DNA from: Eledone cirrhosa
Lineage: Eukaryota
NCBI GenBank assembly: GCA_964016885.1
Contig: OZ024745.1
Span: 69,130,001-69,194,000 of the forward strand
Reading direction: 5' to 3'
DNA: 64,000 nucleotides
The notes beneath the pieces are model-generated. The model made no database searches. It saw only the letters and a program-made list of their open reading frames with translations, and had not been told where the DNA came from. The position numbers were made by a program, and so were the translations under genes. Of the stretch, positions 4,498-55,191 are shown one piece after another (the stretch's first letter is position 1; each line of letters opens with the position of its first letter).

Positions 4498-5280
4498 ATG
4501 TTGGAGAAAGGCATAGTCGTTTAATATATCGACCACAGTATTTGACTGGTACTTATTTTATAGTTCCCGGGGCTTTAAAAGATAAACTCGATCTTATGGA
4601 GGTTGTCTTCCCTCCTTCCGGCAAAGAGAACATAATTACCAGTGAATTATTAAGATCGATATAATCGATAATACCCTTCCTCGAAATTTCTGGTTTGTGC
4701 CTATGTTATAAATCAATATTACTATTCGATTTGTAAAGCGGCAGCCAGCGAAAACTGCCAAACAAAAGTCCTACTGATTTCTATCATTGGAAAATTAAAA
4801 CAAAGCCATACATTTGTGAGGGTGAGGTCATAGACCTAAATTGATTCCTACTATACAACTTGAATTAGCAGAGTCGTTAAAGCGTCGGAATAAATGTCTC
4901 AGCAGTTGCTCCGCGTTCTGCACTCGAAGTTCAAATCCGCCCGAGATCAACTTTACCTTGCAATATGATTAGATTAGCTGCATTGTTTACAAAAAGTGTC
5001 GGATGGGATGTTTTGCTGTATTAATTCCGGGTCTATACATTCTTAGTTAAAAAATTATGTTTATCCCCAGCCGAGAGATAATAAAGGGAGGTTTTCGTTT
5101 GTCAGTTTTCTGATCTTTTCATGTGTGCTTATATATATATATATATATATATGCAAAAGTTCTATTTAAATTGTTGGAATACAACAAGCAAATATTTTTA
5201 TAACTGATATAAAGCACTCGACAAGTATTTGGAGTAAATATACGATATTAACAAATGGAAACTATATTTATAAAACCATA

Positions 5281-5350
5281 TCTATTGTATTATACATATT
5301 TCAAGGATACCATGTTAAATTATGGTATGCTTTCATCAGACAAAATACAA
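5281..5350 (-). ncRNA. Type I hammerhead ribozyme (family A, minus arm)
   Basis: Minus strand reads TATTTTGT-CTGATGA-aagcataccat/aatttaac/atggtatcctt-GAA-ATATGTAT-A-ATACAATA. Core intact; stems I and II pair. Confidence 0.8.
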
Positions 5351-5360
5351 TATATACCAG

Positions 5361-5430
5361 TTTTATTTTGTCTGATGAAAGCATACCATAATTTAACATG
5401 GTATCCTTGAAATATGTATAATGAAATAGA
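5361..5430 (+). ncRNA. Type I hammerhead ribozyme (family A, plus arm)
   Basis: CTGATGA at 5372-5378; stem II aagcataccat/atggtatcctt; GAAA at 5409-5412; stem III ATATGTAT; predicted cleavage after A5420; stem I ttttattttgt/atgaaataga. Confidence 0.85.
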
Positions 5431-5456
5431 TATGGTTTTATAAATATAGTTTCCAT

Positions 5457-5520
<64 letters not shown>

Positions 5521-23220: not shown

Positions 23221-23575
23221 CTAAAATTAATACCTATAAGTACACATATAAACTATTTTAATTTCCTGTTATGAATCCAAATTCCTTGTAGTCTATATAA
23301 GTTTGTTATTTCTCACTAATACATTTATCCCAAAACCTTTTTCCTTCGTTTTTAACAACATTCTTTAATAACATCTAACCTTTATTTATCACATCTATAT
23401 GAATTAATATAAATTTATACCTATAAGTATACCTAACAATTAAATTAATTTAATTTCTTGTTATAGATCTAAATTCATTGTGTTTTAAATAAGATTGGTA
23501 TTTCTCACTAATACATTTACCCTAAAATGTTATTCTCCTTCGATTTTAACATTAGCATTATTCTTTAATAACATC
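23221..23575 (+). repeat. Diverged direct duplication (~155-165-bp units, ~190-bp spacing) in the AT-rich region downstream of the PLE ORF
   Basis: tacctataagta...ttttaatttc...tatttctcactaatacattta...ttctttaataacatc occurs twice (23221-23374, 23410-23575). Confidence 0.8.
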
Positions 23576-23827
23576 AAATTTTCATGTACCTTTCACCGGC
23601 TTGACCTCTTTTCATCGCAAAGTAATGTTTTCATTCAAAGTATTCTTTCTATTCAAAACTTAAGTCTGCATTCCTCTACCCCTAAATTAAATTTCTACTA
23701 CTACTATTCTATCAACTTGACCACTTACTACTTTTCTATTGGTCAATTCAAAACCTGTTCCCAAACAGATCTATTATATTAAATCTTTGTTGATTTTTTT
23801 CAATAAACAAATATCATTAGTTCTGAA

Positions 23828-24142
23828 CCGAGGTTGACTTTGCCTTTCATCCTTACGGGGTCGATAAAATAAAAGTACCAGTAATGCACTGGGTATTTGC
23901 TGGCCTTGTGCCTAAAGTAGAAACAATTATTTCTGAAGACAGCGGTGAATTGGCAGTATCGGTAGAGAGTCGGACGCCATGCTTTGCAGCATAGTTACGT
24001 CCCTTTACGATCTGAGTTCAAATCCCGCCGAGGTTAACTTTGCCTTTCATCCTTACGGGGTCGATAAAATAAAGTACCAGTAATGTGCCGGGTAATTACT
24101 GGCCTTGTGCCAAAAGTAGAAACAATTATTTCTGAAGACAGC
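23828..24142 (+). mobile_element. Tandem Meta-like SINE copies (5'-truncated plus full-length)
   Basis: Same family as 8879-10320; both units end in aacaattatttctgaagacagc. Confidence 0.9.
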
Positions 24143-25721: not shown

Positions 25722-25792
<71 letters not shown>

Positions 25793-25913
25793 GGAGGTGA
25801 GTTTTATTGTAGCACAATAAAGCAATGCAAATATCGGATAAGTAGCACTCAACAGGTTCTAGGACTGGAGTATATATAATATAAAATCAAAAGGTGGTTA
25901 AAAGAGTTCCATG

Positions 25914-25984
25914 TATTTTATTATGCGCATTTCAAAAACAAATATCATCTTGGGATGATATTTGCGTTCTCATCACATAAAATA
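25914..25984 (-). ncRNA. Hammerhead ribozyme copy with a C3G core mutation (GTGATGA); probably impaired
   Basis: Mirror of 26099-26169. The plus strand has tcatcac at 25970-25976 instead of tcatcag. Confidence 0.65.
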
Positions 25985-26098
25985 GGGGGACATGATATGA
26001 AGCTTAAAAACACTTGCGAGCAGTGAAGTGTTAAATCAACATATGTTGATTTAACACTTCACTGCTCGCAAGTGTTTTAAGTTTCATATCATGTCTCC

Positions 26099-26169
26099 TA
26101 TTTTATCTGATGAGAACGCAAATATCATCACATGATGACATTTGTTTTTGAAATGCGCATAATAAAATA
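26099..26169 (+). ncRNA. Type I hammerhead ribozyme (family B)
   Basis: TATTTTAT-CTGATGA (26107-26113)-gaacgcaaatatcatc/acat/gatgacatttgttttt-GAA-ATGCGCAT-A-ATAAAATA. Perfect 8-bp stem I, palindromic stem III, predicted cleavage after A26161. Confidence 0.88.
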
Positions 26170-26203
26170 CATGGAACTCTTTTAACCACATTTTGATTTT
26201 ATA

Positions 26204-26242
<39 letters not shown>

Positions 26243-27280: not shown

Positions 27281-28420
27281 TCAGGTCACCAGTTGGTGCT
27301 ACTGGTAACATGTATCCCAGTACAACCTGTCTCATGGTCGTTGGCGACTAAACTGGCAACCCCACCAAGGTTTCTTGGTGAGGAGGGTGACTTTGGACAT
27401 CCTGCAGGACTAAAAACAAAACCTGTCAAAGGGAAAGGAGCTCGTAAGAGTCAATGACCATCCAAAATCACCGGGAGAGATGACCTCTTAGCCTTTGTCA
27501 AGGCAGAATTCTAGGAGAAGGAAAACTCTGATATAACACCTGCAATCCTGATGGTATCCAATGATGTTGACTTGTTCTGCTTTTTGGTAAATATCATCTT
27601 GGTTAAGAGAGTAGGACTGGCTTTGTGCAGTGCCTTTGCTCACTATAAAAGCTTCACGGCACAGGCATTGCTTTATATCTGGATATCTCTCTGCACTTGT
27701 CGTCATATGGTACCATGGCCCAGCAGTGTGTGTCAATAATTATCACAAATGTAGTGTTTGTACCAGAGTTTTCAAGTCGCTGGCTGGACTAAAAAGCCAC
27801 ACTCGTTCAGCGCATCTGTAGGGGTTCTCCTACATGGATATAAAGTAGTGGCCGTACTCGAAAACGAGTTGGCAGCCACTATGTATGTATGTATGTATGT
27901 ATCCCAGTACAATCTGTCTCATGGTGAGGAGGGTGACTTTGGACATCCTGTAGGACTAAAAACAAAACCTGTCAAAGGGGAAAGGAGCTCTTAAGAGTCA
28001 ATGGCCATCCAAAATCACCGGAAGAGATGACCCCTTAGCTTTTGTCAAGGCAGAATTCTAGGAGAAGGAAAACTCTGATATAACACCTGCAACTCTGATG
28101 GTATCCAATGATGTTGACTTGTTCTGCTTTTTGGTAAATATCATCTTGGTTAAGAGAGTGGGACTGGCTTTGTGCAGTGTTTTTGCTCACTATAAAACCT
28201 TCACGGCACAGGCATTGCTTTATATCTGGAGATATGTCATCAAAAGGTACCATGGGCCCAGCACTATGTGTCAGTAATTGTCACAAGTGTAGTGTTTGTA
28301 CCAGAGTTTTAAAGTCGCTGGCTGGACTAAAAAGTCACACTCGTTCAGCTTATCGGTAGGGGTCCTCCTACATGGATATAAAGTAGTGGCCGTACTCGAA
28401 AACAAGTTGGCAGCCACCAT
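27281..28420 (+). mobile_element. Two tandem copies of a short RTE-derived non-autonomous element with (TATG)n tails
   Basis: Units 27281-27880 and ~27900-28420 are highly similar. Each ends in a C2H2-like HKCSVCTRV.KSLAGLKSHTRS followed by tggccgtactcgaaaac.agttggcagcca, then (TATG)n. Confidence 0.8.
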
Positions 28421-28716
28421 GTATGTATGTGTGTGACTGTGTCTGCTTGTATCTATCTATCTGTTTGTCAATCACTCTTTGTATCTCTTTCCCTATTACA
28501 TATATGTAAGTGTGTAGGTAGTTCGTTATATATAAAATTAAATCTATATGCATACACTCTATAGAAACACACGTTTAAATTTACACATACGAACATACAG
28601 ACATGCGCACACCCACGAGCACACATAAACACACACACGTATATAATTAATAAAATCATATATATATATGGATGCCTGTATGCTTATGTGTATGCACAAG
28701 CATACATTTATATGTT

Positions 28717-49199: not shown

Positions 49200-50250
49200 A
49201 TTGTTTTGCCAGGCAGTTAGCATAGACTTTACCATGGAGATCCCTTTATAAGTGGAGCAATCACTTTGTCTGCGTTTTTGAAAATTGGAATTATCACATC
49301 CGATTTCCATTGCTTTACAGAAATCCAGCCCAGAGAATATCTTCTTTATTTAAGGCTTTTACAATTTCGCGTCGACCTCCATCCTCCCCAACGGCCTTGC
49401 CACTCTAACTGCTCTTTCATTGCTCTTGTGTCTTTATCATCCGAGAGGTTAGTCTGCGCTTCCAGATGTATCTTATGTACACCAGAAGATACTGCTATGA
49501 CTGGGTTTAGGAGATCAGCAAAGTATTTCTCCCCACCTCACGAGGATGCACATCTCTAGCACCAGAAGATCCCCAGACGCGTTACAGATAGCAGGTATGA
49601 AAGAGGACTTCGTATTACTTTATCTGCTGATCTGAAGACGAATTCCAGCTGAAACCGAAAGTCCACCCATGTTTAAAATTTTGACCCCTTTTCAATCGCT
49701 GCTATAATTTCTTACACCTACTTGTACCGCAAGTGCAAGAAGTAGGCCATATTTCCAAGCCAAGCTTTGTAGGCCCCCTTCTTTGCTCGGATGGCAGCTT
49801 TGACTACTTGATTGAACCAAAGGATCCTCCTGCCACCTCCCACGACATCAATATGCTTTTACCCACAGTATTTAACTGCTAAATCAGAAAATGCCGAGCT
49901 GAACAGTTTCCAGTCCATTTTAACGTCTTCAGTTTGCTCAAGGAGTTCTCTGAATTGGAACGCAATAGTATCCGCAAACCTTTTCCTGACGTTCTTATCT
50001 GCCAGCACTTCCCACTTTATCTAGCAGGGTGAGCTGGACCAGCAATTTGTGTGGGCTTTCTTCGCTTTATGTAATCTCAGGCTGCAGATTGCTAGATGGT
50101 GATCAGTTGACACCTTAGCCCATCTCTTAACCCAAATATCCAGTATATAATCGAAGAGCCAATAACACAATCAGGTATTTATTTCTGTCCACGATTCCCT
50201 TTTTGCCATATGTATTTTTGCTGGAAGGATGAATTCACAATAGGGAACCC
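49200..50250 (-). pseudogene. RTE-clade LINE fragment (end of AP endonuclease, linker, start of RT)
   Basis: Minus strand FDYILDIWVKRWAKVSTDHHLAIC (SDH motif), ILWFNQVVKAAIRAKKGAYKAWL, EKYFADLLNP, WKSDVIIPIFKNAD; multiple stops. Confidence 0.8.
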
Positions 50251-54219: not shown

Positions 54220-54254
<35 letters not shown>

Positions 54255-54260
54255 CATATA

Positions 54261-54555
54261 TGCAGAGGTTATATTTAATTTGTTGGGATTGAAGATTGAA
54301 CAAGCTTAAACATTTTTATAACTGATATAAAGCACTCAACAAGTTAGTGGAGTAACGGATTAGTGAATTAAGGGATTATTGGAGCTCCAACCGTTAAGGT
54401 TGTCTTTTCTCAGGGTATGTCAATATTTATTTATAAAATAAATCAGTATTGTATTTTATCTGATGAAAGCGCACCATAATTTGCCTTGGTGGCCCTTGAA
54501 ATATGTATAATAAAATTAATATGGTTTTATAAATATAGTTTCCATTTGTTAATAT
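54261..54555 (+). mobile_element. Family A mini-element, copy 2 (leader plus single hammerhead), in a (TA)/(TACA) tract
   Basis: Leader ...atttttataactgatataaagcactc... shared with 5194-5219; 3' end atatggttttataaatatagtttccatttgttaatat identical to 5430-5466. Confidence 0.8.
54452..54517 (+). ncRNA. Type I hammerhead ribozyme (family A)
   Basis: attttat-CTGATGA (54460)-aagcgcacca/taatttgcct/tggtggccctt-GAA-ATATGTAT-A-ATAAAAT. Confidence 0.85.
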
Positions 54556-54606
54556 ATTGTATATATATATATATATATATATACATATACATACATACAT
54601 ACATAC

Positions 54607-54675
<69 letters not shown>

Positions 54676-54757
54676 TATACATATATATATATATACATAT
54701 ATATACATATATACATATATATATACATATACATACACACATATATATATATATAAT

Positions 54758-54863
54758 ATATAAGATCAAAAGATGGTTAAAAGAGTTCCATGTATTTTAT
54801 TATGCGCATTTCATTCCGATATCTGCATTGCTTTATTGTACTACAATAAAACTCACCTCCTAC
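54758..54863. mobile_element. Rearranged family B fragment (half-hammerhead arm joined to inverted leader)
   Basis: 54761-54812 matches 25882-25933; 54813-54863 is the reverse complement of 25790-25840. Confidence 0.8.
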
Positions 54864-55067
54864 ATATATATATATATTATATATATATATACACATATAT
54901 ATATACATATATACATGTATATATACACACATATATATATATATACATATATACATATATTTATACATGTATATATATATGTATATACACATGTATATAT
55001 ATCCAAGGAAAACTCAACTGATAAGGTATGTTCCTTGGTTATGTAAACATTTATAAAACACACTTTG

Positions 55068-55129
55068 TATTTTATCTGATGAAAGCGTAGCAACATTTTT
55101 GGTACCCTTGAAATATATATAATAGAATA
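55068..55129 (+). ncRNA. Type I hammerhead ribozyme (family A, copy 3; element ~55003-55168)
   Basis: tattttat-CTGATGA (55076)-aagcgtagcaa/cattt/ttggtaccctt-GAA-ATATATAT-A-ATAGAATA. Confidence 0.8.
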
Positions 55130-55191
55130 AATATGGTTTTATAAATATAGTTTCCATTTATTTAATATCATTATATATATATATATAGATG

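Follow-up and report, generated by a model that had tools for sequence, protein, structure and literature searches.

How does a palindrome of some 330 bp, with no spacer at its centre and a hammerhead motif in each arm, come to lie in an animal genome? The question is raised by a locus in a stretch of 64,000 nucleotides of Eledone cirrhosa DNA, the whole of which we call the window. The palindrome, it turns out, is not a free-standing element. It consists of two head-to-head copies of the pLTR and 5'UTR of a Penelope-like retrotransposon (PLE), inserted in (TA)n; the locus is a genuine, decayed stub left by an abundant PLE that has Hydra-type motifs, and is otherwise an ordinary copy. As for how such stubs are made, we put at about three in four the probability that they are inserted by two-ended priming on the element's sense RNA, with run-off at element position -2 and annealing through ATAT.

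The centre falls at 26042/26043, with 36 perfect base pairs on each side, and the arms align over 166 columns at 94.6% identity, with seven substitutions and two one-base gaps. A preliminary description of the locus had recognized the spacerless centre and arms of about 165 bp, both of which are borne out. The extent it gave, 25877 to 26206, is too small, and the insert is asymmetric (Table 1). Folded as RNA, the region reaches -238 kcal/mol (z -37.7), a value equalled by none of 100 shuffles.

Table 1. Features of the palindrome and its flanks, in window coordinates
Feature	Position	Strand	Remark
(TA)n target microsatellite, left flank	25725..25789	.	masks any target-site duplication
Tailed arm, PLE pLTR/5'UTR element positions 1-253	25790..26042	-	95.7% identical to the ORF-linked pLTR of locus L225; outer end would be the distal RT start site
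Tail (81 nt, roughly element positions 173-253), tailed arm only	25790..25870	-	in full-length copies continues into the ORF
Type I hammerhead motif, private C3>G (25976), predicted inactive	25914..25984	-	
Junction CATATG; central ATAT (26041-26044) common to both arms	26040..26045	.	element position -2, the putative capped transcription start
Tail-less arm, pLTR positions 1-172	26043..26212	+	outer end would be the proximal RT start site
Type I hammerhead motif, core intact, palindromic helix III, one private stem II mismatch	26099..26169	+	
(TA)n target microsatellite, right flank	26209..26240	.	

Spacerless inverted repeats can arise as chimeric reads, and this is what could be said for a sequencing or assembly artefact. 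We give that reading virtually no credence; the preliminary description, too, judged an artefact unlikely. The arms differ at 9 of the 166 columns, the exact 24-nt junction occurs 842 times in the genome at one and the same base (a control, not once), and the same junction recurs in a contig that a different study obtained from a different organism. The strand switch at -2 is seen in raw reads too, though with one start position only.

The arm has many genomic relatives at 93-96% identity, and upstream of many of them lie a long AT-rich 3'UTR and RT and endonuclease frames. At intact loci the units measure 3,896 bp and stand in tandem, and the 253 nt of the tailed arm are followed there without a break by an 821-aa ORF. 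The arm is therefore pLTR plus 5'UTR, and what we call the tail belongs to the 5'UTR as well, as its following 81 nt. An exact 25-mer that spans the hammerhead has 22,318 occurrences in the genome, a minimum for the number of arms; a 23-mer of the young subfamily occurs 11,889 times and a 20-mer of the window's own subfamily 796 times. Many copies of the 821-aa frame are open, apparently intact and identical in score, and the dozens that score identically suggest very recent activity. Units of about 3.9 kb in tandem, with open 821-aa frames, lie for example at L206 (C2:134.08 Mb), L209 (C3:26.52 Mb) and L210 (C4:169.50 Mb).

Pfam and PDB searches with the 821-aa protein (P0001) returned no significant match, and its placement in a clade rests on motifs. 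By eye it has FDI..YY, MG..S and YRDD, a C-terminal Y-x10-YFG...R...H region with one Cys only in the EN core, and the Hydra-type motifs SDKT, CNCRIKNKC and CNLC..E...N....CLH. The accessible text on the EN+ PLEs of the Hydra clade (Craig 2021, PMC8557442) describes an RT followed by a C-terminal EN, an arrangement that P0001 probably shares; the same DKT, CxCX5C linker and CxxC/CxH round a conserved E and N; the same (partial-)tandem pLTRs with a hammerhead inside; the same (TA)n target; and the same inverted copy, 5'-truncated and tailed at one end. It also gives absence of CCHH as a trait of the clade. There are differences. Our unit is 3.9 kb where these elements are generally below 3 kb (a tendency and not a strict criterion), LRWT stands where the clade has RWK, the tail is 81 nt against the 30-40 described, and in this genome ORF-less pLTR-pLTR stubs with a fixed centre are a major product.

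The window holds further features. A remnant at 22702-22920 matches the endonuclease region of P0001 (37%, E 1e-6). Direct repeats at 27370-28434, 23224-23588 and 23828-24142 have spacings of about 540, 190 and 200 bp, and the last includes a word of about 55 bp that recurs 12 times in the window and is also found in older copies of the PLE's 3'UTR. A second head-to-head hammerhead palindrome, of another family, occupies 5140-5476, with cores at 5372 (+) and 5339 (-) and arms 92% alike; again it has one longer arm and (TA)n flanks, and it has relatives at 54249-54573 and 55065-55185.

The plus-strand ribozyme had been called textbook. Its stem I (26099-26106 with 26162-26169) does have eight base pairs, every one of them A-U, and its core is intact (CTGATGA at 26107-26113, GAAA at 26150-26153), with the self-complementary ATGCGCAT as helix III and a predicted cut after 26161. 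The label goes too far in other respects: the 10.1-11.1 pair is G.U, the monomer folds no better than shuffles (z -0.89), and no Rfam hammerhead model was among the 39 hits of one scan or the best 150 of 167 of another, the Rfam hits at the palindrome being hairpin and microsatellite noise. The minus motif is as first described, with GTGATGA and a better-paired stem II, the mismatch being confined to the plus arm (the stem II consensus pairs 15 of 16 bp). Reading meaning into a canonical motif paired with a mutant one finds no basis in the population. C3>G is private, present in 1 of 90 subfamily arms, and arms of this subfamily carry a mean of 3.5 private changes, a degree of divergence that the window's two arms share; the mutation is thus decay after insertion.

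In 266 of 300 arms the hammerhead core is intact. Of the 29 columns with inherited polymorphism, not one belongs to the core or to helix III; the most variable core position is the free N7. All eight inherited variants of stems I and II retain pairing through G.U, which works on the sense strand only. By hand counts of sites, 6 of 20 stem A's show A>G and none of 20 stem T's opposite an A shows T>C (p 0.01); the A>G variants could be marks of RNA editing instead of selected changes. Type I motifs with a short palindromic helix III are expected to work as dimers (Cervera and de la Pena 2014, PMC4209133, in its accessible text), and the palindromic helix III here suggests cleavage that would depend on a dimer. 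Metazoan PLE hammerheads (PMC4209133) and the non-LTR retrozymes (10.64898/2026.07.22.740005) are, in the accessible portions of these sources, of the same type; ours differ in a 10.1-11.1 pair that is G.U or A-U, not G-C, and in a stem II of 15 bp. At the window locus there is one inverted pair, with no tandem hammerhead monomers of the kind that mark a retrozyme. A compact hammerhead-core-like string from a regex scan, at 49632-49663 (+), may be chance.

Does the ribozyme shape the inserts? Matches for a genomic 5' end at the predicted cut number 139, where two control positions give 56 and 52. Their causes are mixed; this is weak evidence for self-cleavage and in line with uncut RNA as the main template, as in the Anolis element discussed below. 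The data do not support the cut end as a main template: of 20 matches sampled, about 14 proved to be true breaks, the enrichment is small, and the end is tens-fold rarer than that at -2.

If each insertion folded back for itself, as had been supposed, palindrome centres should vary among copies. The comparison gave the opposite, a pile-up at one site. Taking the first 100 hammerhead-anchored arms on C1 as an unbiased set, we found 48 that continue upstream into the 3'UTR, 28 whose end falls in the interval from -6 to +1 (23 of them at -3/-2) and 24 that end inside, 18 of these over positions 5-104. The stop at -2 is independent of the partner joined there, which rules out CATATG as a fold-back hot spot, and the absence of AG rules out a splice acceptor.

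A fixed centre and stereotyped ends are what one would expect of a palindrome mobile as one unit, whether MITE-like or a self-regenerating palindromic SINE, and in the first 50 junction loci both arms are complete in 37, every one tailed plus short by hand count. We consider such mobility very unlikely all the same. The ends are asymmetric, where a MITE would have symmetric terminal repeats and a transposase partner; spacers of 2-10 nt are as frequent as none (9 pairs against 7 in the first 100 young-subfamily arms); partners break anywhere; and the parent encodes RT motifs. A target-site duplication is unreadable in (TA)n. The preliminary view that this is no MITE therefore holds. Stubs and read-through arms also share haplotypes, the three commonest being present in both, and for 121 of 154 stubs a read-through arm exists that is no more than one diagnostic change away. 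That the palindromes form a lineage of their own was rejected as well: one subfamily seemed absent at 30 intact-junction loci, but the search pattern had missed its upstream variant, and the haplotypes are shared.

What marks the inner end as an RNA end? In 5,609 arms the base at -3 is non-template, the base preceding -2 in the intact element being C. Twelve of 17 unbiased arms have G there (p 9e-6 against 20%), and among the first 100 of the 5,609 the base is G in 38 (p 2.5e-5 against 20%), T in 44 and A in 18. Thirteen G's were traced among 28 true breaks: four lie in microhomology with the partner arm, three are ambiguous and six are clearly untemplated. The sequence at the inner end reads TCA(+1)TAT, which we take to be an initiator-like word. 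In L1, run-off at the cap leaves an extra G, a signature of cap copying (PMC11702581, accessible text), and in D. virilis the promoter of Penelope is internal and TATA-less and includes an Inr (Schostak 2008). Read from the DNA, all this suggests a capped transcription start at A(-2), with run-off there.

The outer ends are fixed too. Arms end at element position 172 or 253 and pass into (TA)n, both in the assembly and in raw reads of two runs under the same species label. From 300 aligned arms we obtained 85 head-to-head pairs, not a random sample, and one tailed and one short arm are combined in 50 of the 51 with a spacer of at most 60 nt and in 32 of the 34 with longer ones; one palindrome is short plus short. 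The Anolis element PAc, a Poseidon, has two internal RT starts that bound a tail, and its target undergoes cutting and extension on both strands (Frangieh 2024, PMC11167929); our ends at 172 and 253 match those two starts. PAc also shares an AT-rich target, and uncut RNA is its main template. It belongs to a different clade, and its RT starts lie in the ORF where ours lie in the 5'UTR; in the accessible text of that paper, inverted copies are not tied to two-ended priming or 5' run-off.

Junctions of this kind do have a published reading, the self-priming on an antisense template that Arkhipova (2013, PMC3846280) proposed for head-to-head PLE palindromes. In the text available to us, the Penelope elements of Adineta vaga show the same head-to-head pLTRs, junction palindromes and optional tail, read there as antisense self-priming, whereas the population here indicates a sense, capped template. 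For our element we regard antisense self-priming as very unlikely. The cap-like G and the initiator-like word are on the sense strand, the stem variants keep pairing on that strand only, and the two outer ends agree with the starts on sense RNA that a different PLE uses in vitro.

The preliminary description attributed the palindrome to reverse transcription, in the manner proposed for inverted PLE termini, and named fold-back priming or template switching as the process. The origin by RT, and of the PLE inverted-terminus type, stands. Fold-back would have a single cDNA, primed at 253, reach the 5' end of the RNA, snap back, copy itself and join the second target end at the TA-like 172. It agrees with the geometry of the window locus and the variants shared by its arms; equal-length palindromes such as that at 26042/26043 come out identical under fold-back and twin priming, and for this locus alone fold-back is possible. 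Several loci whose second arm is of 12-65 nt only also speak for it. The family as a whole does not. We resolved 45 pairs by hand in C1:0-25 Mb, leaving out five junction-biased loci and every pair that lacked an element partner or ran beyond the sequence analysed. In 28 of the 45 the short arm reaches further 5' (seven of these have zero overlap, and segmental duplication probably accounts for one of the 28), in 5 the tailed arm does, in 10 both reach the start, and in 2 they are equal elsewhere. Since the short arm then carries sequence absent from the tailed arm, fold-back of a single tailed cDNA fails for most of the family. A copy of the same family within the window, at 54748-54866, has a short arm (110-173) head-to-head with a tail-only piece (206-256), an arrangement unobtainable by fold-back. 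Position 172, moreover, is also where long ORF-bearing copies end. As the general mechanism, we judge fold-back unlikely.

The centres of five loci (L013, L038, L041, L042 and L053) contain short duplications that restart at -2, which suggests that the RT jumps back after reaching the template end. In L038, L042 and L053 the duplication is confined to the tailed arm, against fold-back; in L041 the same 20-nt duplication is in both arms and L013 shows three turns, as fold-back would have it. Some true snap-back, which the one short plus short palindrome would fit as well, likely occurs besides two-primer events.

The two arms of a pair come from one source. The median number of columns at which they differ is 1 when the spacer is at most 60 nt (n=51) and 4 when it is longer (n=34), compared with 16 over all pairs; rare variants are shared by 12 of the 51 and 5 of the 34 (17/85) against 20 of 3,000 random draws. 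The window's two arms share a variant found in 3 of 90 subfamily arms. This fits one RNA copied twice or two sister RNAs alike. Arms from two different source loci were considered and rejected, discordance at diagnostic sites being 6/68 against 30% at random (the background, 83/2,711, is lower still). In L1 twin priming, two primers on one RNA reportedly give rise to an inversion; the second primer there sits at variable sites and the arms barely overlap, where here the starts are fixed and the overlap is full.

The stubs have a counterpart in copies that kept the ORF, and these behave differently. Of 254 pLTRs that continue into the ORF we took the first 30: 19 read through -2 and 11 stop inside, so that not one of those reaching -2 ends at it (Fisher p 6e-4, the terminal arms giving 28:48). 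All 12 of the full-length copies selected continue past the site as well. The model therefore needs a second, longer RNA. RNA starting at -2 appears, from these sequences, to give stubs only, and ORF-bearing copies likely come from the longer read-through RNA.

Two-ended priming would then run as follows. Both ends of the cut target would each prime a cDNA on the sense RNA, one at 172 and one at 253, using either one RNA twice with strand displacement or two sister RNAs. Both cDNAs likely run off the predicted capped 5' end at -2, and both would consequently end in the self-complementary ATAT that is the shared centre at 26041-26044; through this microhomology the two ends likely anneal. The hammerhead would be a passenger of the 5'UTR, copied uncut, its core change in the minus arm arising after insertion. 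The stubs themselves are likely by-products, made anew by each active sublineage.

Head-to-head pLTRs, junction palindromes and one-sided tails were already known (Arkhipova 2013; Craig 2021, as far as their accessible text goes). Start-site-centred, twin-primed pLTR palindromes had no match in the literature searched, most subscription papers lying outside its coverage, nor had sense-template two-primer evidence or two template classes. In its accessible text, Craig 2021 (PMC8557442) names the formation of tandem and inverted PLE ends as open, and Arkhipova 2013 (PMC3846280) left sense against antisense templating undecided. A wider proposal, which we hold tentatively and at a little under even odds, is that inverted PLE termini arise when a dimeric RT uses both cut ends as primers on a single capped sense RNA, starting at two fixed positions and pushing the first cDNA aside; promoter-born capped RNA would yield only ORF-less palindromic stubs, and full-length copies would spread through a separate read-through RNA. 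If that is true, the thousands of stubs amount to a 5'-RACE that the genome has run on the element, and would decide between a sense and an antisense template.

Hundreds of spacerless palindromes of 330 bp persist in this animal genome, most of those sampled still complete. The locus is of moderate interest, because its population makes an open mechanistic question testable. The PLE family yields predictions exact to the base (a start at -2, RT starts at 172 and 253, joining at ATAT), and its young 821-aa ORF, with so many apparently intact copies, offers the means to test them.
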